From the IMG/VR virus record IMGVR_UViG_2595698371_000001: a stretch of DNA of 64,000 nt; one strand, given 5' to 3'. The notes beneath the pieces were generated by a model that worked only from the letters and a program-made list of their open reading frames with translations, searched no databases and had not been told where the DNA came from. The DNA is from Bongovirus bongo. Its lineage: Duplodnaviria > Heunggongvirae > Uroviricota > Caudoviricetes > Vilmaviridae. The position numbers and the translations under genes are program-made. Below, in pieces: positions 16,486 through 63,915 of the stretch (position 1 is its first letter; every line of letters begins with the position of its first letter).

Positions 16486-16496
16486 ACGGTTCCCTT

Positions 16497-16841
16497 CTAG
16501 TCGCTCAGGTAGATCTCGGCGTAGTTCGATGACTTCGGGCGGATGGCGATGCTGGTGCCGCCCTGGATCTGGATGACGCCCTTGCGGAACGACACCCCGA
16601 TCTCCTCGTAGGTGTGTTCGGACGGCTTGCCCGTGGCCGAGAAGTACACCGTCTGGTAGCCGTAGTCGACCGGGATGTAGATCTTGTTCTCCCAGTCGCC
16701 GTACCAGATCGGAGACGGCTCCACGGTCTGGAGATGCTCCTTGAGCCGGTGCTCAGCCTTGTCGGCGCGGTAGCGCTCCTTGGCCAGCAGTGACTGGGCC
16801 CATTTCGGGAGGTTGCCCTCCCGGGGATCTTTCTCGCTCAC
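16497..16841 (-). CDS. hypothetical protein
   Basis: 114-aa ORF. Confidence 0.5.
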   Translation of the reverse strand: MSEKDPREGNLPKWAQSLLAKERYRADKAEHRLKEHLQTVEPSPIWYGDWENKIYIPVDYGYQTVYFSATGKPSEHTYEEIGVSFRKGVIQIQGGTSIAIRPKSSNYAEIYLSD

Positions 16842-18178: not shown

Positions 18179-18972
18179 AGCATTCCCTTCGATTTCCAGT
18201 GTTGGTAGTGCATGCCGATCAGCCAGTTGTCCAGCTGTTCGTAGTCGGGGTGATCGGGGAGGTAGGAGTTCTCCATGGCCCCCCGCAGCATGTCGGTGCG
18301 CCACTCGAGGATGTTGAGTGTCTCCGCCAACGTGTAGCGGCCTTCGCGTACCGCGAGCAGGTAGTCGCGGTGGTGGTCCTGCATCGGCAGGTAGATGTGG
18401 CCTTCGGTCATCAGCTGGTGCCCTTGGATGGCCAGCCGCGTCGCGTGGTACATCATCTTCGTGTCGTAGCCGAACTTCTGCACAAGCTCGGGCCGGTTGG
18501 TGTGCTTGCGGCCGCGAAGCCCCTGCGCCCGGTCACGCTGCGCGACAAGGTATCCGACGAACCGCTCACCGGCCTGCTTTGACAGGAACAGGTGGCGGTT
18601 GTCGATCAGCTCTTCGCCCAGCTCGTTGCGGAAGTACACATGCTGCAGCGGCGCGAACAGCGGAACCAGCACAGTCGGATTGCCCTTGGCCGCAAGGCGT
18701 GCCCACTTCGCCAGGCTGTAGATCACCTGGTCAGTGTCGCCGGGGCCCGACCGCACACCCTCAGGGATGCGGGTGCCATCAGAATGCCAGCGGTCCTGGT
18801 ACTGCTCGAACTTCTGGGTGCCGATGACACACTCGGGCGGCGCGATGCACATGCCCATCTCGTCGTTGTCGTCGGCCCCAACGGACACGCCGTGCAGACG
18901 GGAACCGACCTCAGTCTTGTAGATCAGGTTCTCGTGGGCAATCTTCCGATGCCAGGGGCTGTGGTGGCTCAC
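18175..18972 (-). CDS. Pol-beta-superfamily nucleotidyltransferase
   Basis: N-terminal GS-x-hG-x-DD-D motif (GSRLHGVSVGADDNDEMGM) typical of minimal nucleotidyltransferases; 265 aa. Confidence 0.55.
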   Translation of the reverse strand: MSHHSPWHRKIAHENLIYKTEVGSRLHGVSVGADDNDEMGMCIAPPECVIGTQKFEQYQDRWHSDGTRIPEGVRSGPGDTDQVIYSLAKWARLAAKGNPTVLVPLFAPLQHVYFRNELGEELIDNRHLFLSKQAGERFVGYLVAQRDRAQGLRGRKHTNRPELVQKFGYDTKMMYHATRLAIQGHQLMTEGHIYLPMQDHHRDYLLAVREGRYTLAETLNILEWRTDMLRGAMENSYLPDHPDYEQLDNWLIGMHYQHWKSKGML

Positions 18973-53111: not shown

Positions 53112-53142
53112 AAAAAAGGGGTGGCCGGATGCACCCCCTCGA
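53112..53142 (-). terminator. rho-independent terminator (leftward) ending the small-gene operon before int
   Basis: on the minus strand, GGGGTGCATCCGGCCACCCC followed by TTTTTT. Confidence 0.5.
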
Positions 53143-53165
53143 GTGCACCCGGCCTGGTCCCTCTT

Positions 53166-53941: not shown

Positions 53942-53972
53942 TTCTTGTGTTTCCCTTCTGTCGTGTCGTGTT

Positions 53973-54203
53973 TCAGATGGTCAGGAACTTCTCGACGTTC
54001 GGGGTGGCGTAAGCCCACGCAGTCGCGCTGGCCATGTCGCCAGCAAGCATCGAGCTGATTGACTTGGCGAGCCCGTCGAGCGTCTTCTCCAGGTTGTGGA
54101 TGTGATCGATGGCCTCGATGTGTGACGAAACCAGTTGCTGCTCAATGACTGTCAGCAGCGGAGCGTGGTCCTGGATGGTGAGCAGTTCCCGTTTGGTGAT
54201 CAC
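53973..54203 (-). CDS. hypothetical protein
   Basis: GTGA overlap; 76 aa. Confidence 0.45.
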   Translation of the reverse strand: MITKRELLTIQDHAPLLTVIEQQLVSSHIEAIDHIHNLEKTLDGLAKSISSMLAGDMASATAWAYATPNVEKFLTI

Positions 54204-54308
54204 AGGTTGATTCCCTTCTTGGAGGGCCGGAAGGCCACGTAGAAGATGTAGACCAGGTAGATGCCCAGGATGGCCAGCGCCAGGAACTGGCCGAGTGTGA
54301 GCTGCATG
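54204..54308 (-). CDS. tiny membrane protein (34 aa)
   Basis: ATG after GAGAAGGGAACAC; hydrophobic; below the ORF-track cutoff. Confidence 0.3.
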
Positions 54309-54344
54309 TGTTCCCTTCTCGTGTATGTGACGTGAATGTAGGCG

Positions 54345-54368
54345 TCTCCTGTAATCGCAGGTCAGCCC
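54345..54368 (-). promoter_or_regulatory. composite AB motif (minus strand: GGGCTGACCTGCGATTACAGGAGA)
   Basis: about 35 bp upstream of the leftward gene start at 54308; orientation follows transcription. Confidence 0.5.
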
Positions 54369-54436
54369 ATGCTTTTGGCCCAGAAAGCCAGAAAGCCCCC
54401 CGACCGAAGTCGAGGGGCTCTCCTACCTGCTGGGAA

Positions 54437-54961
54437 CTAGATGGGGTTCTTCAGGTAATCAATCCACTTGTCGCAGTTGCGGATCACCTTCTGCCTGTGC
54501 TGCACCTTGGTGCGCTTCGCGCAGTGACTGCACACCCGGTAGCCGCGTGCCTGCACCTCGTCAATGGTGAGGCCGGTGAGATGGGGGAGCGGGTCAATCG
54601 GCGTCCGCAGCGTGATCGTGCGGCAGAACGTGCTGGTATGCACCGCGCCTGATGGAACTTGCACGTGGCAGTCGAACTCTCCATGGCGCAGCCACGTGCG
54701 CCTGGCATTGCTGAGCATGTCGGCCAGGCGTTCCCCCCGTGGCCGCATGGCAGCTGCCATCTCGCATGCTCCCTGCCGCGTGAATCGTTCGAACTGTTTG
54801 CGGAACGACCGCATCTCATCGAAAAGTGCAGTTATTTCAGATACTACTTCTATCAACTCCTCTTTGCTCATCGCTTGTTGTACTCGTACATGTGGCAACC
54901 ACCCTCCCGTTGTGGCAATCGTTGATGCTTTCGCGAGTGGTAATTTTACTAGAGCCCTCAT
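54437..54961 (-). CDS. hypothetical protein with a C-terminal Cys motif
   Basis: 174 aa; GCGAAGGGAATC immediately before the ATG. Confidence 0.5.
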   Translation of the reverse strand: MRALVKLPLAKASTIATTGGWLPHVRVQQAMSKEELIEVVSEITALFDEMRSFRKQFERFTRQGACEMAAAMRPRGERLADMLSNARRTWLRHGEFDCHVQVPSGAVHTSTFCRTITLRTPIDPLPHLTGLTIDEVQARGYRVCSHCAKRTKVQHRQKVIRNCDKWIDYLKNPI

Positions 54962-55070
54962 GATTCCCTTCGCCTACCAGCGGGTTCGTGACGCCCGCCG
55001 TGACCGATAAACGTTGCTGAACACAGCAGAAGGGCACCGGATCGGCTGACCCGGTGCCCTTCCTCCCTAC

Positions 55071-55274
55071 TCAGTGAACGTCGACGCTCTGGTCGTGGTA
55101 GCCCATGCGGTGCAACAGTTCATCGAGTGCGCCCGCCAGATTGTTACGGGCGAACGACTCGAAGTCGGCGCGGATCTTGTCCGGCCCGCCGTCGATGCCG
55201 TAGTCGATGGCCCACGCGTCGAGGTCCATGTCCTTGACGGTGACGGTGAATGTGAAGTCGCCGCGCCCGGTCAT
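55071..55274 (-). CDS. hypothetical protein
   Basis: ATGA overlap; 67 aa. Confidence 0.4.
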   Translation of the reverse strand: MTGRGDFTFTVTVKDMDLDAWAIDYGIDGGPDKIRADFESFARNNLAGALDELLHRMGYHDQSVDVH

Positions 55275-55510
55275 CGCTGCGCCCTCCCGGCCCGCATGGA
55301 GCTGGCGACGATGTCGAGCACGTCGTCCCGGCTGAGGCCGAGATCCTGGTTGAGTGCGTCGGCAGCCGCCTTGGCTCGCTCAGCGCTGCCGTACACGGTG
55401 CTGAGGGTGTTGTAGCCCGCCTCGTCCTCGGTGACCACAGCGACGACGTAGTCGCCCTTGGCGTGGTCGTAGAACGACTCGTTTGCGTAGTAGCAGATCC
55501 TGCTGCTCAT
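55271..55510 (-). CDS. hypothetical protein
   Basis: conserved leader CAGAAGGGAAATCA before the ATG; 79 aa. Confidence 0.45.
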   Translation of the reverse strand: MSSRICYYANESFYDHAKGDYVVAVVTEDEAGYNTLSTVYGSAERAKAAADALNQDLGLSRDDVLDIVASSMRAGRAQR

Positions 55511-55799
55511 TGATTTCCCTTCTGTCGTGGTTGTGTGATACTGGACAAGGAGACCAGCCCTGGATGCGCGAACACCCAGGACTGGCCCTCACGGGTTACC
55601 TCCGGTAGCGGCCGATCAGGTCAATGATCGCCCACACTGCCGGTGGTACCGCGAGGAGCAGGGCGATGGTTTGTAGCGCGTACATCGTCCTGCCCTCCTT
55701 CCTCCCCGCCCCACGGGCTCTCCGTGGTGGCGAAGCTTGGCTCTGAACAGAGCAGAGGGGCTACGGATCGTCCTCCAACCCGTAGCCCCTCCTCCCGGT

Positions 55800-56090
55800 T
55801 CACAGTGCCTTGTTGGCGTTCCAGATGTTGCACACCGCCTGTGCATAACTCGCACCGGCATCTGTGGCCGCGTCGACCTCGTCGCGCTGCGCCTCCGTCA
55901 TCTGTGAGTTGAGCGCTGCCCGCAGCAGCTCGTTCTCACGCTCCAGTTGACGCGTGCGGTCGTACTTCTCCTGGTCCCAGACCAGGTGCATGACCTCCAT
56001 CTCGTCAGGGTCGTGCGGGTCGAAGTCGACGCCAGGGATCCATCCCTCGTTGCGGGGGGCCTCGTTGTCGCCCAGGTACGGCATTGCCAT
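55800..56090 (-). CDS. hypothetical protein
   Basis: GAGAGAAGGGAACAACAGA before the ATG; 96 aa. Confidence 0.45.
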   Translation of the reverse strand: MAMPYLGDNEAPRNEGWIPGVDFDPHDPDEMEVMHLVWDQEKYDRTRQLERENELLRAALNSQMTEAQRDEVDAATDAGASYAQAVCNIWNANKAL

Positions 56091-56173
56091 TCTGTTGTTC
56101 CCTTCTCTCGTGTATCGCTCTGAATTGAGCAGGGGTGCAACGGATCCTGCGACCCGTTGTACCCCCTCCCGAT

Positions 56174-56365
56174 TCAGCGCATTCTACTCACACATTCCGG
56201 TGGGTAGCCCATGCGTTTGAACTCTGCCCGAGCGGCCTCGAGGACAACTGTCTTGATGTCGTCCCGTGCCGACCGGGGCCCTGCCAGGTTGTAGCTGTCT
56301 GCGTACTCCCACAGGTCGATGTCGACAGCCAGGTTGACCACCGTCCTGTCACTGGCGGGACTCAC
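56174..56365 (-). CDS. hypothetical protein (64 aa)
   Basis: GTG after GAGGAGGAGGG; the upstream part of ORF-track ORF 56174..56515 is in a non-coding Arg-rich frame. Confidence 0.35.
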   Translation of the reverse strand: MSPASDRTVVNLAVDIDLWEYADSYNLAGPRSARDDIKTVVLEAARAEFKRMGYPPECVSRMR

Positions 56366-56418
56366 CCCTCCTCCTCGGGGCGTACGTCGCACTTGGCGCA
56401 CTTCCGGTCGTATGCCAT

Positions 56419-56530
56419 CAGACGAACGCCCCCAACTCGTAGTCGAACGTGGTGCCGTACGAAGGGCAGTCCTCCGAATGGTCACCGTGGTACCCGCACT
56501 GATTGCAGGTGTCATCCGTATACCTAGCCA
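56419..56530 (-). CDS. tiny Cys-rich protein (37 aa)
   Basis: CxxC...C; TGATG coupling to the downstream mini-ORF. Confidence 0.3.
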
Positions 56531-56683
56531 TGTCTCTTCCCTTCTCGTGTTGTGGCGGTGCTGAGCACACCAAAGGGGGCACCAGCCGAAGCTGATGCCC
56601 CCGAGTCGCGCTCAGAACTTAGAGCTGTTTGAACAAGAGGATGGTGGTCGCCAGCACTGCTGCGACCGACCAATACACTGCCG

Positions 56684-57033
56684 TCATACCGCCCTCCTCC
56701 GTTCCCATTCTGTCCGTGCCCACTGTGCCGGGGTCCACCGGTTGCGCATGATGGCTGCTGCCATGCGCTGCAACTGATGTGGGTTCGCATAGTACTCGTG
56801 CGAGTCGAGCGCATCAGCGATGCCCTCGTGGTAGCCACGGTTGTGGTCGACCACGTCGAACCCGGTCTCGTCTTCAAGGAACTGCAGGCCCTCCCAGCCT
56901 GCAGGCCAGAGGATTGCGGTCTCCCAGAGGTCGAACGATCCGCCCATGTACACGGTGGACACCTGGACCACGCCGACTCCATCGATGATGAAGCCCTGCA
57001 TGATCTGTCGCTGCGGCCTGAACATGGTGCTCA
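56684..57033 (-). CDS. hypothetical protein
   Basis: ATGA overlap with the 57030..57192 gene; 116 aa. Confidence 0.4.
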
Positions 57034-57192
57034 TCGGTTCACCGCCCATGCTGCAGGCAGGAACCCGCCTGCGGACAGCCAGCCATCGAGACCGTCGACC
57101 ACGACCACCAGCTCGCCGAGCGGCACCTGCCCACCACCCAGGTGGGCCTCGACCATCTCGCGAATGAGCTTGAGTGCCTCGTCTGGATCCAT
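57030..57192 (-). CDS. small hypothetical protein (54 aa)
   Basis: conserved leader GAGAAGGGAAGAGACACA before the ATG. Confidence 0.35.
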
Positions 57193-57288
57193 TGTGTCTC
57201 TTCCCTTCTCGTGTGGGTGTCCGTCTGGCCACCAAGGAAAGGCACCACAGGTTGCCCTGTGATGCCCTCCCCAAGCTGCCAGCCAGCT

Positions 57289-58363
57289 CTACGCCGGGAT
57301 GAGTTCCGGCATGTCGAGCACCTTGGCCAGGGCCCCCAGCGTGGCCCCATCGCTCGCCGCGATGTCGCCACGGATGGCCCGGTCGTAGACCCGCTCCAGG
57401 CGCGACGTACCGCGCACGGAGCGACCGTGATGCTCGTAGGTGTTGACCGCCTGCACGACACCAAAAGCGGTGCCCGCGAACGGTGCTGACATGGGATCCA
57501 CCGTGTAGTAGTGGTCGAGCGCCTCGCGGCGGTTCTCAGCCTTGGTGATCTTGGCCTTGCTGCTGTCCGCAGGGGCAGGGGGCTCGATGATGTCGAGCAC
57601 CTTCAGCCACTCCTTGCGGGTGACCTCGATCTGGGCCAGCTCGCGAGTGAAGTCCTGCATCTCATGCGCGGACTTGTCCAGGATGGACAGTGCCTCACGG
57701 ACACCGGCCACCACCTGGGCACTCATGCTGTTCACGGTGTGCTTGACCTTGTACTGACGGCCCGACTTGCGGGCATCCGCACGGATCCCTTGGAACATGT
57801 TGTCGCAGATCAGCATCCGGTTGAATGCCGAGTACGTGGTCGCGATGGACCCGTCCAAGGAGGTCTGCGCGAGGAGGAACGGCCAGAACTCGAGGCCGGT
57901 CTTCTCGTCGTGCATGGTCTCGTCCAGGCCGATCTCGACAGCCGCCTGTGCGCCGTTCTTCAGCGTCAGTGCGGACAGGATCGAGAGACGGTCCTGCAGG
58001 ATGTTGCTCACGTTCCGGATCAGCCACTCCTTGTAGTCGTGGATCCGGTAGGACTTGGTGTGCCGTCCCAGCTCCGTGCAGTCATCGGAGCGCACAATTC
58101 CCTGTGCGCCCTCGGTGATGACCACCTTGGCCGGTCGCCCGTCGGGCAGGACGATCACCCCCGGCTCGCCGAGCTGGTCGACACCGACCGGGATGAAGTT
58201 GCCTGTGGGCACGCTGAGCGCCTCCCAGTTGAACAGGCGGCGCTCCACCTCACCCACGGGGATGGGGCCCTCGTAGGTCGGCAGGGTGCCGTCCGTTTGG
58301 CCAATCCACCGGTCGCGCTTGGCGGTGTTGCCGATCAGTGCGTGAGCGATTTTGCTTCCCATA
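57289..58363 (-). CDS. hypothetical protein (358 aa), largest gene of the right-arm block
   Basis: ATG after GAAGAAGGGAAGAGAACT; the N-terminal extension of ORF-track ORF 57289..58539 is non-coding leader. Confidence 0.5.
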
Positions 58364-58427
58364 GTTCTCTTCCCTTCTTCGTGTGTTACCCGTTTGTGTA
58401 ACGGGCATCTGTACCGTCTGAGTACAG

Positions 58428-58468
58428 CAGAGCGCACAGGGTGATTACAGGAGACCAACCTGTGCGCT
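58428..58468 (-). promoter_or_regulatory. B-motif copy displayed in the loop of a 9-bp perfect hairpin (GCGCACAGG-GTGATTACAGGAGACCAA-CCTGTGCGC)
   Basis: between the stop at 58478 and the leader of the 58363 gene. Confidence 0.45.
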
Positions 58469-58477
58469 CCTCCCCAC

Positions 58478-58885
58478 TCAGATGTAGGCCTTGCCGTCCG
58501 GTGCGAGATCCACCAGCGGCGCGTCATACACCGGGGCACCCGTGTAGCCGAGCGTGAACGTGCCTGCCTGGTAAGGGTTGTAACGCGCCTGAGTGTTCGG
58601 CAGTATGCCGGTCACCCGTGGATCGTTGATGTCCACCAGGGTGCCAATGACACCCGCGTGGACACTCTTACGCCGCGTGCGGATGACCTTCTGTCGACCG
58701 CTTTCGCGCACCACAAACCGAGCATCCAGGATCACCGCGCCGGTAGCGTGAGCGACCACTCTGCCCTTGTTTTCACCAGTGCGGGCAACCAGAGACCACT
58801 TGTCGCGGTGCAGGTTTCGGTATGCGAATACCTCTGCTCCTGGCTCGACTCCACGGCCCTGGTATGCCTCGATGACATAAGACAT
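58478..58885 (-). CDS. hypothetical protein
   Basis: GAGAAGGGAATAGAGCA before the ATG; 135 aa. Confidence 0.45.
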   Translation of the reverse strand: MSYVIEAYQGRGVEPGAEVFAYRNLHRDKWSLVARTGENKGRVVAHATGAVILDARFVVRESGRQKVIRTRRKSVHAGVIGTLVDINDPRVTGILPNTQARYNPYQAGTFTLGYTGAPVYDAPLVDLAPDGKAYI

Positions 58886-58966
58886 TGCTCTATTCCCTTC
58901 TCGTGTGATGGTGCTGAGAACACCAGCAGGACAACAGGTCTCACGAACTGTTGCCCTGAGTCGCTC

Positions 58967-59242
58967 TCAGTACTGACGTGCGTAGCGGTCGGCTAGACCT
59001 CGCTCGAGGTCGGCCTGGTCGAGGCATTCGCCAGCCTCACCGAACAGCTCCCAGACCAGCGCCGGATCGAACGCGGGATACACGACGCGGATGAGTGACT
59101 TGACCATCAGCGCCGCGTAGTCGTACGGCGATTCCGGTGCGCTCTCATAGTCGTATGACTGGCTACTGATTCGCCGGTCGTCATGCGTCGCAATGGCGTA
59201 GTAGACATCCCACGCTTGCTGCAGCAGGTTTGCGTTGCTCAT
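58967..59242 (-). CDS. hypothetical protein
   Basis: ATGA overlap; 91 aa. Confidence 0.4.
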   Translation of the reverse strand: MSNANLLQQAWDVYYAIATHDDRRISSQSYDYESAPESPYDYAALMVKSLIRVVYPAFDPALVWELFGEAGECLDQADLERGLADRYARQY

Positions 59243-59370
59243 CAGAGCTCACCGCCCTTGCGGAGCTGCTGACGCACCGCGCGGCGGTCGGAGCGCTTGA
59301 GCTGCTTACGCGAGCCCAGGCGACGCTCGCCATGGGTGCCGAGCATGCGGCCATGATTGGAAACGTACAT
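59242..59370 (-). CDS. small basic protein (42 aa)
   Basis: full conserved repeat unit upstream; N-terminus HGRMLGTHGERRLGS is paralogous to the 59796 gene. Confidence 0.35.
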   Translation of the reverse strand: MYVSNHGRMLGTHGERRLGSRKQLKRSDRRAVRQQLRKGGEL

Positions 59371-59468
59371 ATCTGTAATCCCTTCTCCGTGTGTGTAATT
59401 CACTGCCCATCTACAGACAGCAGAGAGCCCACAGACATTGCTGCCTGTGGGCTCTCCTCCGTGTGTAG

Positions 59469-59696
59469 CTAGCTGAGCTTGAAGTACAAGCTCTGCAGCT
59501 TTGTTGTGCGACTCAGGTAGACCAGCCGGGGAGTCTTGGTGTGGCCATGCCACTCCCAGAACTCGACTTCGACCGTGTCCCCGTGGACCTGGGTGTCTTC
59601 AATCTCGACAGCCCTGCCGTCCACAATGGCCCACTGGCCATGGCTGAACTCATGCGCATAGATCTCGATGCCGTTGACAATCTTGATCTCAGCCAT
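59469..59696 (-). CDS. hypothetical protein
   Basis: 75-aa ORF. Confidence 0.4.
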   Translation of the reverse strand: MAEIKIVNGIEIYAHEFSHGQWAIVDGRAVEIEDTQVHGDTVEVEFWEWHGHTKTPRLVYLSRTTKLQSLYFKLS

Positions 59697-59795
59697 TGTT
59701 GTTCTGTCCCTTCAGGATTGCGGTTACAAGTGCTCGCCGTGCGGCTCGCGCGGTCTGATGCGTCTGACGCTGGTAGCGCCTGTGGTAGTGCCGCA

Positions 59796-59999
59796 TCAGA
59801 TTTCATCCAGTGCCAGCACGAGCACGACATCCGTGCGCCAGTCGACGGTACGGTGCCATGTCGGCTCACCTTCTGGATCGTCGTCCCACTTCACCAACAC
59901 GTTGGTGATGCGTCGACCTGGCATGCCGCCTTCTTCGATGCGCTGGTACTGGCCCAACCGGCCGGTGCCAAGCATGCGGACAAGCTTGCTGCGTTCCAT
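59796..59999 (-). CDS. small protein (67 aa)
   Basis: full repeat unit upstream; N-terminus RMLGTGRLGQ. Confidence 0.4.
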   Translation of the reverse strand: MERSKLVRMLGTGRLGQYQRIEEGGMPGRRITNVLVKWDDDPEGEPTWHRTVDWRTDVVLVLALDEI

Positions 60000-60096
60000 T
60001 GGTCCTATCCCTTCTCCGTGTGTTGTTACTGCCTGCCTGCAGACAGCAGAGAGCGCACAGAGTTGCCCCTGTGCGCCCTCCTCCATGTGCAGACGA

Positions 60097-60337
60097 TCAC
60101 TCGCCCGGGGCATTGATCCACCCGCGTGCGCGGATGAGTCGCTCACGCGGATGCGCCGGTATCCGCCCGTGCGAACCATCGATACTGATGGCCGCATACA
60201 GGCACGTCTGATACTTGCGATCCAGGTTGCCCCAGTGGATCCACACACGCGTGCCCCTGCGTTCAAGCACCCACTCGTGCGGGCGCTCCTCAGTGACAGT
60301 CCACCCATTGGCTTGGGCTTCTTCGCGAATCAACGTC
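60097..60337 (-). CDS. small protein (80 aa)
   Basis: full repeat unit upstream. Confidence 0.4.
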
Positions 60338-60435
60338 ATGTTGTCCGGACGCGTCATGTTTCTTGTCCCTTCTCCGTGTGTGCTGCCTGAGTGCAGCAGA
60401 GAATACATAGGCTAGCTATGTACCCTCCTCCGTGC

Positions 60436-60687
60436 TCAGACCGTGGGTCGGGGCCCGAAAATCCAGTCACCCGTAGGAGCGCCGACGCCGACGGGCACAA
60501 AGTAGCCCGACTCGACACCGTTAGCGCTCGCACGCGAGTACTCGATCCGGTAACCCCGGCGGTGGGCAAAATCAGAGATTGCCCCCGCTGCGTCCCACGC
60601 AGATCCATACGCACCCTCCAGTCGACGCCCATTCAAGTTGGCAATGACCAGGACAGAATTTGCCTCGACAGTCATGGAATCATGCAT
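60436..60687 (-). CDS. small protein (83 aa)
   Basis: full repeat unit upstream. Confidence 0.4.
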   Translation of the reverse strand: MHDSMTVEANSVLVIANLNGRRLEGAYGSAWDAAGAISDFAHRRGYRIEYSRASANGVESGYFVPVGVGAPTGDWIFGPRPTV

Positions 60688-60769
60688 GATGGTTTCCCTT
60701 CTCCGTGTGTGTGTGCTGCCTAGGTGCAGCAGAGAGCACACCTGTCACCAGGCGTGCCCTCCTCCGTGC

Positions 60770-60991
60770 CTAGACGGTCTTGTGTGTGGATGCCCAATGA
60801 TCGGCACCCATGGCCTCAGCCGCGTGCTCTGCCGCGTAGGTGGCGGATTGCCAGCCACACGAGCATTCCGCCCGGAACGGGTACCCGTGATTGTTGGGCA
60901 CCCACACGACCGTAAAAAAGTGATCCACGGTCGTCGTATCGCCATTGCCAGCCGCCAACAACGGTGCAGCAATGTCATGGATAAACGGCAT
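60770..60991 (-). CDS. small protein (73 aa)
   Basis: repeat unit upstream. Confidence 0.4.
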   Translation of the reverse strand: MPFIHDIAAPLLAAGNGDTTTVDHFFTVVWVPNNHGYPFRAECSCGWQSATYAAEHAAEAMGADHWASTHKTV

Positions 60992-61069
60992 GAGAAATTC
61001 CCTTCTCCGTGTGTGTGGTCTGAGTTGACCAGCGGCAGCACTGCAATGCAGTGCTACCTACCTACCGAC

Positions 61070-61291
61070 TCAGTCCTCCGTGACCAATCTGTAGGTCACC
61101 TTGACGTGGCCATACGCCAGCGTTGCAGTGAATGCGCGGTCAGACTCGTGCCATTCCACGAGCCACCCACCATCCGTGTACATGCGGGCAATCCGCGCCA
61201 AATTGCGCAGCGCGGTCGGAAGAGTCTGGATCCAATTGCCCACCTCGTTACGGTCAGGCGTAGGCCCTTCTCTATCAATCCGATATGCCAT
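61070..61291 (-). CDS. small protein (74 aa)
   Basis: repeat unit upstream; the upstream hairpin is an 11-bp perfect stem. Confidence 0.4.
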   Translation of the reverse strand: MAYRIDREGPTPDRNEVGNWIQTLPTALRNLARIARMYTDGGWLVEWHESDRAFTATLAYGHVKVTYRLVTED

Positions 61292-61377
61292 GTTCTCTAT
61301 CCCTTCCGTGTGTTTGCTGCCTAAGCAGACAAGCGGCAGCACTGGACACGGATGCCCAGTGCTGCCTTCCAATCGGC

Positions 61378-62106
61378 TTAGACGACGGCCAGGGGCAGGA
61401 AATTCTTGGCCCCTACGCCGTGCACCTCAATCGAGATCGATGCCTTACGGCCGTTCCCGTTGCCCCCACACTGCATGCACGTGATGCACTGCACTGTGTT
61501 GTCTTTACCCGCAGTAGCGGGGCACTGGACAAGTCCCTTAGGCTTTTCTGCACCCAACGGACGGACGACAAACCCGCGCCAACCAGCACGGCGCGCGGCA
61601 ACGTAGTCATCAATCGTGTCGCATGACGCCATGCAGAACTCTGCAAGGCTGGCGTCGCAGTCGCGCCATTGGTGCGTGTAGCCGGTGACGCCATCGGCGA
61701 CGCTGGCAATGGTTGCCCACACATGTGTGGGAACCGCGCCAGGATCGCCGTAGGCACCGAGCCTCACCTTGCGACCAGCGAACGCGGCCGGATCGAACGG
61801 ACGGACGTTGCCACGCACATACGCCCCGTACACAGAGTTCGGGGTACGCATGTTCACGTAGCAAGTCCGCTTGCGACGTTCCGCCGAGTTGCCCCGATGG
61901 ACACAACCGCCACACACGGCAGCGTCGCTACCGTCTGCAATGGCCTCACTCGGCTTGACATCAGCACGCAGGATCCACGTTTGGACCATGTCACCTGTCT
62001 TGACATTGCTGGACTTGAACGACGCCAGCACCACAATGGGAGTGACGTTGTCAAGTGCCGAGATGCCCTCCCAGACGACCATGGTCTGATGCTTGCGATT
62101 CGACAT
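61378..62106 (-). CDS. hypothetical Cys-motif protein (242 aa); first gene of the leftward operon
   Basis: CGGAAGGGAATAGAGCA before the ATG; CGGC.H and ITCMQCGG motifs. Confidence 0.45.
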   Translation of the reverse strand: MSNRKHQTMVVWEGISALDNVTPIVVLASFKSSNVKTGDMVQTWILRADVKPSEAIADGSDAAVCGGCVHRGNSAERRKRTCYVNMRTPNSVYGAYVRGNVRPFDPAAFAGRKVRLGAYGDPGAVPTHVWATIASVADGVTGYTHQWRDCDASLAEFCMASCDTIDDYVAARRAGWRGFVVRPLGAEKPKGLVQCPATAGKDNTVQCITCMQCGGNGNGRKASISIEVHGVGAKNFLPLAVV

Positions 62107-62819
62107 TGCTCTATTCCCTTCCGTGTGGTACGGGGCACCAATTGGCACACCCAATAGGGCACACGGATGAGAAGTGACTCCTCACCCGTGTGCCCGATGA
62201 GTGCCCCTAAGTGACATTGATCGAGATCAATGCCCACTAAGGGCACCGTAAGTTCACACTTGGAAGATTAGGAAAAGAGAGACGAGTCCGACTGACCTAG
62301 CACACGTGCCGCACGCCCCATAGCCTCTCGTAGGCGTAGCTAATGCGGGAATCTGCTAGGTGTCCCTTGCCACAATTGCCCTGGTAGACGGCCATATCGC
62401 ATGCCGACGTTCCCACTTCTACGACTCTCACGTAGGGGTACGACCAGGGAATGTGAGTCGTCGGCCGTTTGCAGTGCGCAAAAAACATGCACCGCCGGTA
62501 CCGACTCCCATTGTGGGGACTCACGACGCGCCCACTTCCGGACCTCTGGGCAGACTTCACCCACCAGGCCATACCTCGCGCGTCACACTATGGAGTTCTC
62601 AAACAACGTTTAAGGACACGTCGCAGCCGACGCCAGTCCCGCACGCCCGTAGGCCATGCGATTTGCGGGTACTACTCCTTTCTGAAGGCAATGTTGTAGA
62701 AGGCGCTCCCGGTCCCCCCCTTGCGGGGGGGGCGGTGCGTCGAACAAGGAGAACGTTACGGCCAGGGTGGTCAGCAAACAAGTAGGGGGGGCATTGTTTC
62801 GGGCACCAAAACGGCTAGT

Positions 62820-63915
62820 TGCGAGGCTGTGACCTGCAGGAATATGAGTTTCTGTGACGTACATCACACAGTGGATTTTGGGCCTACAGCAAACAAGCCT
62901 CTGACCTGGGGTTTTAGGTAAAAGCGCAGGTCAAAGCACATACATAGAAAAACCTATATATTAGCTAGGCTTGCAAACACCAAAATGCCCTGTGACCTGC
63001 AGAAACTTTTTTCTAGCAACGTAGTTAACTATGTGCGTTTTGGGCCCGAAATCAGCGTCAAGCGTACCCCGTTTGACCTGCGGTTTCTCCACATATGCCC
63101 TGGTAGCGAGTTTGTCAGGACAAACACCCAAAAATGGCCAAAAATTTGCTAGCAAATCCGAAAATCACTCATATTCGTTCATGTCGATATACGCATATCT
63201 GCTGGTAGACGCGGTTTCAAGGGTCGAAAGTCGGTCTACAGCTGCAGTTGGCAGCCCAGAATTTTGGGTGGTTTCGACGGGTACAGCTAACCCTGTTTAT
63301 GCAGGTGGGAGGCCATAGCAAACACTGTGTTTCGGGGCATGCCAGAACGGCCGATATGCGCGGATGCGGGTAGGTGAGGTTAGGCAACCCTTAGTGCTAC
63401 CTGGTCAACCTGGTCTGCGGACACGCGTATGTGGGACGGTGCGACGCAACGGGGCATTGCGGGCCCCTAGCGTCCACACAGACGGCCGAACGGGGCACGG
63501 TGCGATGGATCGCTTGGGTGAGTCCATCTCGATCGCTTAGAACGGCTCTGAGAGCTTCGAGGACGACCGGGCCGCGCAAATACACCCTTCCAACCCTGCC
63601 TGTCAAGCGTCTGTGACCATTGCCTCAACAGGGTTGACAGCAGTGCGTGACATGTGGTATCAGGAGGCCAGCTAACAGTGGTTAGCAGTGCTAACGCTGA
63701 CTGGAGTCAGTAGAGCTACCAGGAACGATGATTCACATGATCTGCAAAAGCCCAGGACAACGGTGCATATGCGAGATCTGCAGCGTGTGACCTGCATCGA
63801 TGCGACACACAAACCAACACGTTGCGACGTGCACACAGACCAGCTAACACGTCACGTGAGTTAGCTGCAGCAAACCCAAGATCCAGCAAAAACCTGCTTT
63901 GACCTGCGGAAACGT
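62820..63915. repeat. right-end cluster of at least 7 A-motif sites (TGACCTGCR, often TTTGACCTGCGG) in an otherwise ORF-free, lower-GC region
   Basis: copies at 62830 (TGACCTGCAGG), 62903 (TGACCTGGGG), 62925 (reverse complement, GCGCAGGTCAAAG), 62994 (TGACCTGCAG), 63072 (TTTGACCTGCGG), 63786 (TGACCTGCATCGATGCG) and 63898 (TTTGACCTGCGGAAAC). Confidence 0.6.

Follow-up and report, generated by a model that had tools for sequence, protein, structure and literature searches.

The DNA analysed here (the window) is a 64,000-nt stretch of Bongovirus bongo, IMG/VR record IMGVR_UViG_2595698371_000001, and the element in question is a module, built of a conserved leader and a hairpin, that recurs between the small genes of its right-end leftward operon. 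The 8219 bp of the studied region are 100% identical to Mycobacterium phage PegLeg (NC_021299 / KC900379), a member of cluster M1, and are matched by about 25 further cluster M phages at 67-99.7%. Window coordinates equal the coordinates of the PegLeg record minus 16955, so the end of the window is the right end of the genome. The operon runs from gene 159 to gene 135 and is followed by gene 134, the product of which contains Resolvase, Recombinase and Zn-ribbon (Zn_ribbon_recom) domains and is a serine integrase. Family matches among the operon genes are few (DUF932 for gene 149, an L5 gp82-like protein for gene 150 and DUF2637 for gene 136), and the remaining genes encode small proteins without assigned function.

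The first part of the module is the pre-start box, a leader with a Shine-Dalgarno (SD) sequence, of the form ACACG-N0-3-GAAGGGA. Motif enrichment was computed directly: this pattern was found 14 times, on the minus strand only and between 53952 and 62126, vs. 0.09 matches expected from shuffled sequences. An earlier note on this DNA, made from the letters alone, had listed 15 copies of the leader; all of them are present within a few bases of the positions it gave, and the statistics confirm its view that the repeats form a true family, interspersed between the cistrons of one polycistron and equipped with a ribosome-binding site and hairpins. The core GAAGGGA has 18 minus-strand copies in the operon, each located 4-11 nt upstream of a start codon (16 ATG, one GTG and one TTG), which means that 18 of the 25 operon starts are preceded by it; the remaining window holds eight matches, both strands counted. 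Two variants of the box could be distinguished, ACACGGAGAAGGGA at genes 157-152 and ACACGAGAAGGGA at genes 150-138.

As a control we used the 76 genes located within 1-50 kb of PegLeg. Here GAAGGGA was present at positions -25 to -1 in three genes, ACACG was upstream of none, and 42 of the 76 genes started with ATG. The median gap between same-strand genes elsewhere in the genome was -1 nt vs. 78-129 nt for the operon gaps that bear a unit. From the counts for the control genes and the gap lengths elsewhere we concluded that the box is a trait of one operon and not the general PegLeg ribosome-binding site. GAAGGGA also serves as an SD sequence in another leftward block, at 16491-16497 and 18184-18190 (minus strand; record genes 40 and 46), without the ACACG extension and without hairpins. 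In IMG/VR, the distribution of the array was restricted to cluster M genomes, and for bacterial genomes (at least 120 stretches) the box gave single matches only among the 80 loci listed.

The second part of the module was revealed when every operon gap of at least 60 nt was folded on the coding strand. One hairpin design, accompanied by boxes of varying sequence, was observed in 15 of these 16 gaps, namely an imperfect helix of 14-29 bp, which reaches 23-29 bp in 13 of the 15 hairpins. The 5′ foot of the helix usually lies at or within the upstream stop codon, where (C)TGA(G) pairs with (C)TCA(G). Above it, the lower stem is formed by a purine-rich 5′ strand (GGGAGGAGGG-like) and a pyrimidine-rich 3′ strand (CYCUCUGCUG-like), both of them conserved, while the upper stem and the loop are unique to each copy. 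After the helix come, in this order, a short linker of mostly A and C (ACACAC), the box, a spacer and the start codon. A search with the strict two-box pattern GGAGRDG-N18-44-CTSTGCT gave six on-target matches vs. 0.31 expected.

These results change the picture of the unit given in the earlier note. The hairpins had been described there as 8-11 bp long and are actually 14-29 bp long, and what had been taken for a 'post-stop box' and for a separate 'TCTCTGCTG' are the two strands of the lower stem. The 'small hairpin' placed next to them turned out to result, in part, from the 3′ strand of the long stem pairing in another way. Six gaps had been named as holding a complete unit; both boxes are indeed present at 59371-59468, 60000-60096, 60358-60435 and 60688-60769, but are degenerate at 60992-61069 and 61292-61377, while two gaps that had not been listed, 55686-55799 and 58363-58477, also carry both.

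The sole gap without a hairpin, 59697-59795, is spanned by an unannotated 35-codon open reading frame (ORF) that overlaps both neighbours, and is therefore probably not a true gap. This ORF (59689-59796, minus strand) would encode a very basic peptide; its ATG overlaps the stop codon of gene 154 (TGATG) and its stop codon overlaps the start of gene 153 (ATGGCTGA). Within the same interval it is the antisense strand that gives the better fold. Coordinates of all boxes and hairpins are collected in Table 1.

Table 1. Pre-start boxes, hairpins and terminator of the leftward operon, in window coordinates and in the order of transcription
Feature	Position	Strand	Remarks
Pre-start box, gene 159	62115..62126	-	ACACGGAAGGGA, then 8 nt, ATG at 62106
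Hairpin after gene 159	61316..61386	-	29 bp; encloses stop codon 61378-61380
Pre-start box, gene 158	61300..61311	-	
Hairpin after gene 158	61017..61076	-	24 bp; stop codon enclosed; degenerate boxes
Pre-start box, gene 157	60999..61012	-	ACACGGAGAAGGGA
Hairpin after gene 157	60718..60775	-	24 bp; GGAGGAGGG pairs with CTCTCTGCT; stop codon enclosed
Pre-start box, gene 156	60695..60708	-	Implies ATG 60687 vs. RefSeq GTG 60741
Hairpin after gene 156	60385..60441	-	23 bp; stop codon enclosed
Pre-start box, gene 155	60366..60379	-	
Hairpin after gene 155	60035..60094	-	26 bp; alternative fold: 14-bp apical stem, 60049-60080
Pre-start box, gene 154	60008..60021	-	
Core-only SD, gene 153	59707..59713	-	GAAGGGA; gap without hairpin
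Hairpin after gene 153	59405..59473	-	28 bp; stop codon enclosed; compensatory changes in orthologues
Pre-start box, gene 152	59379..59392	-	
Hairpin after gene 151	58914..58970	-	24 bp; stop codon enclosed
Pre-start box, gene 150	58894..58906	-	ACACGAGAAGGGA
Hairpin after gene 150	58412..58486	-	29 bp; stop codon enclosed; 5 compensatory pairs in orthologues
Second small hairpin	58387..58407	-	8 bp; between main hairpin and gene 149 box; conserved across cluster M
Pre-start box, gene 149	58371..58384	-	Implies ATG 58362 vs. RefSeq TTG 58458
Hairpin after gene 149	57225..57282	-	25 bp
Pre-start box, gene 148	57202..57214	-	
Hairpin after gene 146	56558..56618	-	25 bp
Pre-start box, gene 145	56538..56550	-	
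Hairpin after gene 144	56117..56180	-	26 bp; stop codon enclosed
Pre-start box, gene 143	56099..56113	-	ACACGAGAGAAGGGA
Hairpin after gene 143	55741..55805	-	27 bp; stop codon enclosed; downstream gene 142 has a GGAGG-type SD and no box
Hairpin after gene 142	55551..55588	-	17 bp
Pre-start box, gene 141	55516..55529	-	CACGACAGAAGGGA
Hairpin after gene 140	55017..55074	-	25 bp; stop codon enclosed
Core-only SD, gene 139	54965..54971	-	Before ATG 54961, the probable true start; record: TTG 54856
Hairpin after gene 139	54379..54434	-	24 bp
Pre-start box, gene 138	54312..54324	-	
Core-only SD, gene 137	54212..54218	-	Inside the end of gene 138
Pre-start box, gene 136	53952..53966	-	ACACGACAGAAGGGA; TTG start
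Canonical intrinsic terminator after gene 135	53123..53154	-	14-bp GC-rich stem, then T-tract; closes the operon

The 3′ tail of mycobacterial 16S rRNA was taken as ...GAUCACCUCCUUUCU. We infer that the box pairs with it: AGAAGGGA and the final 8 nt of this tail are predicted to form eight contiguous pairs, including one G-U pair. The predicted SD energy ranged from -9.0 to -10.7 kcal/mol at all 18 box genes, and the pairing of these genes is stronger than that of the other PegLeg genes (mean -7.9, p=0.001). The ACACG half of the box sits 5′ of the stretch that the 16S rRNA 3′ end can reach.

Next to the enrichment, we computed directly the hairpins, their strand asymmetry and the compensatory changes in related phages. 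Folding of the gaps relative to dinucleotide shuffles gave z values of -2.4 to -7.0 for the 15 hairpins. In 16 of 17 gaps the sense RNA was the more stable of the two strands, with a mean difference of -7.4 kcal/mol (Wilcoxon p=0.003), because G-U pairs of the stems become C-A mismatches on the antisense strand. A comparison within cluster M showed that the relatives keep the units: in the right arms of Bricole, SlimJimmy, Reindeer, Rey, Nanosmite and MrMagoo, GAAGGGA occurs 14-20 times on the minus strand and not once on the plus strand. The right arms of PegLeg and five other cluster M phages contain 101 sites at which a box precedes a start codon. A helix of at least 12 bp, usually of 22-32 bp, was found directly after the upstream stop codon at 76 of them, and at 52 the stop codon is located in the base of the stem.

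For covariation, two orthologous hairpins, those after genes 150 and 153, were aligned across six phages. Compensatory double changes were detected in five pairs of the former and three pairs of the latter, vs. 0-1 in controls with slid partners; 94% and 100% of the cells in the two alignments were paired, and several G-U pairs were invariant. The covariation statistics are modest, and stronger evidence comes from the 15 paralogous copies, which have unrelated tops and are all clean helices. The strand-asymmetric folding and the compensatory changes are evidence that the hairpin structure is selected in the sense RNA and not for DNA identity. Among the covariance models of Rfam nothing reached the gathering score, and the three sub-threshold matches were chance matches.

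Repeats of this kind have been published for cluster M. In its account of cluster M features, PMC7953290, which announced the M2 phages Estes and Aziz in 2021, mentions short conserved repeats between many genes of the rightmost leftward region and stem-loops upstream of them; the repeats CR3 and CR4 are credited there to Pope et al. 2014 (J Virol 88:2461), and PegLeg is one of the three founding cluster M phages of that work. Since PegLeg was among the phages of the 2014 paper, the element, as far as that account goes, is already described, and the match of the PegLeg units to CR3/CR4 is one of phage, location and stem-loops, with no evident difference. The likeness consists in the same phage cluster, stem-loops that lie upstream of the repeats and inserted genes that carry a copy. 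From the phrase 'CR3 and/or CR4' in the same account we suspect that CR3 and CR4 are the two box variants, i.e., the ACACGGAGAAGGGA- and ACACGAGAAGGGA-type.

With moderate confidence, we favor the reading that the module is a uniform SD leader joined to intercistronic hairpins for mRNA stability or processing. The host of PegLeg is an actinobacterium whose mRNA decay is dominated by RNase E and RNase J. Between most of the non-overlapping cistrons there would be a modular element acting in the leftward mRNA. Its leader would provide each small cistron with an unstructured site for ribosome loading, equal in strength from gene to gene, and its hairpin would punctuate the polycistronic transcript. 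The nuclease steps, each of which we infer, would be the following: the hairpins most likely bar 3′-to-5′ exonucleases, serve as RNase III substrates, or both, and mycobacterial RNase E, which prefers cytidine, could act at the C-rich linker; the outcome would be stable per-gene or per-block mRNAs. What is known of the substrate preferences of RNase III and RNase E (PMC10641625) agrees with helices of 22-32 bp and with a C-rich linker in single-stranded form. In size the helices match RNase III substrates, and they would stand in the way of 3′ exonucleases; processing or stabilization is therefore favored. The leader had previously been called a 're-initiation SD'; the gaps of 60-115 nt with their stable helices point instead to independent initiation rather than coupling.

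Several observations weigh against this reading. The SD energy of the boxes is only moderate, and genes of the same operon that lack the box reach -11 to -16 kcal/mol. In view of these stronger SD sequences, SD strength leaves the conservation of the exact AGAAGGGA and of ACACG unexplained; some other reader of the box sequence may exist. Likewise, a pure stability role does not explain why the lower stem is conserved in sequence beyond its pairing. The covariation, in turn, rests on only five distinct sequences per hairpin.

Such a reader is assumed in the proposal, raised also in the earlier note, that the boxes are translational operators, to which a dedicated phage or host factor (protein or RNA) binds and switches about 18 genes together. 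Operator-type regulation was also proposed for the Cluster K start-associated sequences (SAS), on the basis of a parallel argument (PMC3203893). In PegLeg, the conserved ACACG lies 5′ of the 16S-pairable part, the boxes uniformly hold one SD variant, with a G-U pair, in place of the stronger GGAGG, and the box is restricted to one operon, all of which agrees with an operator. On the other hand, the spacing between ACACG and GAAGGGA varies from 0 to 3 nt, which is awkward for a rigid binding site and favors a flexible element of single-stranded RNA over a rigid DNA site for a protein. No factor emerged as a candidate, and the anti-box sequence of the PegLeg leader is not conserved in the other cluster M phages. 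We consider a regulon of this kind unlikely. A trans-acting anti-box RNA derived from the operon leader was considered and rejected, as the corresponding stretches are absent in Reindeer, Rey, Nanosmite and MrMagoo.

The leader of gene 159 (62114-62262, minus strand) is itself highly structured (z = -7.6). It contains two adjacent hairpins with 22-nt arms, 62154-62198 and 62201-62246, and in the minimum-energy fold the gene 159 box pairs with an anti-box that lies upstream of it, near 62250-62262. One of the hairpin arms consists of a second anti-box, cuucucauccgugug at 62160-62173. According to this folding model, the structure might mask the first SD sequence of the operon.

A more elaborate version, in which the modules provide phage-specific post-transcriptional control, appears to us speculative and rather unlikely. 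Here a factor would read ACACG-AGAAGGGA and jointly control about 18 small genes, early or lysogeny-adjacent ones; the stop-anchored hairpins, whose lower stems are conserved in sequence, would act as its processing or docking sites, and the ends of the modules would double as cassette joints.

The hairpins could also be viewed as non-canonical intrinsic terminators or attenuators without U-tracts that produce an expression gradient along the operon. Stable GC-rich stems directly after stop codons are in line with such a role, and terminators devoid of U-tracts have been proposed for mycobacteria (background in PMC3993855). However, the in vitro data of the same paper indicate that mycobacterial RNA polymerase requires a U-tract (PMC3993855). 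The absence of U-tracts was computed directly: the tails carry 0-1 T in most units, and the terminator scan passed a single intergenic hairpin, and that weakly (56575-56602), vs. a textbook site at the operon end. In addition, fifteen serial terminators would silence the distal genes. We therefore find attenuation improbable. The reading of the intergenic hairpins as canonical terminators was rejected, there being no U-tracts and a clear site only at 53123-53154.

Another explanation is that the modules act at the DNA level as recombination joints, with the boxes serving mainly as short homologies for cassette exchange among cluster M phages. The earlier note had suggested a recombination scaffold, with genes gained and lost as cassettes, which the comparison across phages supports weakly; two cases fit an exchange from box to box. 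In SlimJimmy, three different genes stand in the place of genes 158-156, and both junctions of this block fall at pre-start boxes; in Reindeer genes 143-142 are missing, two PegLeg boxes being aligned to one. For Aziz and Estes, insertions that bring a CR3 copy are reported in what PMC7953290 says of these repeats. Alignment breakpoints were enriched in the box zone (14 of 57) vs. a uniform null of 5.5% (p=2e-6), but not vs. other gene-boundary or intergenic positions (14 of 39 vs. 24.5%, p=0.07; the endpoints are non-independent), and conservation of the box is in itself enough to draw alignment ends to it. The 758-bp indel at 56366, with no microhomology beyond GG, is not box-mediated. Moreover, the folding asymmetry and the compensatory changes reflect selection on RNA, and the integrase is a serine recombinase, which excludes an integron-type mechanism. 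Exchange junctions were found on either side of the hairpin, indicating that it is not tied to one neighboring gene. It is plausible that cassette exchange at the boxes is a side effect and not a function, and we have little faith in recombination as their main purpose.

The indel at 56366 consists of 758 bp of Bricole and SlimJimmy (parts of four Bricole genes, 143-146) that are absent in PegLeg. Its junction leaves a 19-codon remnant ORF after gene 145, and the annotated gene 144 (GTG start) may be a fusion product. A box-mediated origin, suspected from a local GGAGGAGGG, was rejected, since the sequence is coding and GG is the only microhomology.

The array does resemble integron attC sites as generally known: both have imperfect hairpins, conserved at the base and varying at the top, located after small promoter-less ORFs, in a one-orientation array that adjoins an integrase gene. 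The PegLeg integrase, however, is a large serine recombinase and not an IntI tyrosine recombinase, a GTTRRRY core is missing, and the folding asymmetry indicates RNA. An integron-like cassette array was rejected on the grounds that gene 134 encodes a serine integrase, as the Bricole annotation also indicates.

Finally, the boxes might resemble stoperators, with a phage repressor bound to box DNA blocking elongation of the operon in lysogens, as many one-orientation intergenic sites in a temperate phage recall the Cluster A stoperators (PMC3203893), but the tight distance of 4-11 nt to start codons, the SD sequence within the box, the variable internal spacing and the lack of a known link to a repressor make this very improbable.

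We return to the favored reading of SD leaders with processing or stabilizing hairpins and place the module among known systems. The analogy to the Cluster K SAS drawn earlier proved apt. Both are short asymmetric motifs with an SD core that occur in one orientation a few bases before start codons (3-8 bp for SAS, 4-11 nt for the PegLeg box), only in non-structural genes, near gaps >50 bp and with a strong ATG bias; both have conserved bases that 16S rRNA cannot reach, and in both a subset is preceded by inverted repeats (Pope et al. 2011, PMC3203893). The sequences themselves differ: the 13-bp SAS consensus GGGATAGGAGCCC has a single match in PegLeg, with two mismatches and outside the operon, vs. 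1.78 expected. The extended SAS (ESAS) are 17-bp inverted repeats of conserved sequence, the variation of which does not support RNA pairing (PMC3203893). Unlike them, the PegLeg stems differ in every copy and keep their pairing through compensatory changes.

The RNase III hairpins of T7 early mRNA and the REP stabilizers of E. coli are familiar cases of hairpins with an intercistronic location, no terminator tails and imperfect helices that are long (about 20-30 bp) and interrupted by small internal loops, all of which PegLeg shares. The PegLeg hairpins differ in being coupled to a fixed SD leader and in usually overlapping the stop codon. As for the mycobacterial interspersed repetitive units (MIRU), to which the earlier note had likened the elements, the likeness is limited to a size of 50-100 bp, an intergenic position in operons and the mycobacterial setting. 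MIRU are direct repeats, often tandem, and conserved along the whole unit; in PegLeg no tandem arrays with a period above 12 were found, only the short boxes are common to the copies, the hairpin tops are unrelated and it is the hairpin that defines the unit. The label MIRU-like was thus not retained.

A second repeat family, GCAGGTCA[ACG]A, is located at 62828-63907 in the 1.9-kb non-coding right end. It comprises six exact copies (five on the minus and one on the plus strand) and one copy with one mismatch, vs. one exact copy in the other 62 kb; extended copies read CTGTGACCTGCAGGAA. This is probably another published cluster M repeat (CR1 or CR2).

The association of boxes with start codons also bears on the annotation. 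At least two RefSeq starts in PegLeg, those of gene 149 (TTG 58458) and gene 156 (GTG 60741), look misplaced: both fall inside intergenic hairpins, and the box-associated ATGs at 58362 and 60687, respectively, are the likelier starts. The lengths of genes 149 and 156 in the later records of Bricole and SlimJimmy fit the ATG starts. The RefSeq start of gene 139 (TTG 54856) is probably misplaced as well, the box-associated ATG being at 54961. In the long form of gene 139, the 5′ part (54857-54961) is markedly AT-rich vs. its surroundings, which suggests a recently acquired segment.

Because the element was, by the account in PMC7953290, published in 2014, our analysis confirms and refines known work and is not a discovery. 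What it adds is the recognition that the post-stop boxes make up the lower stem of a stop-anchored helix, usually 23-29 bp long, the evidence for selection on the sense RNA, the contrast to the single terminator of the operon and the correction of start codons, for which the box is a reliable marker. The units represent a clean natural example of operon punctuation, in which about 15 sequence-unrelated hairpins follow one design and each is tied to an identical ribosome-binding leader. PegLeg would be a good system for the study of how mycobacterial RNases and ribosomes handle polycistronic mRNA.

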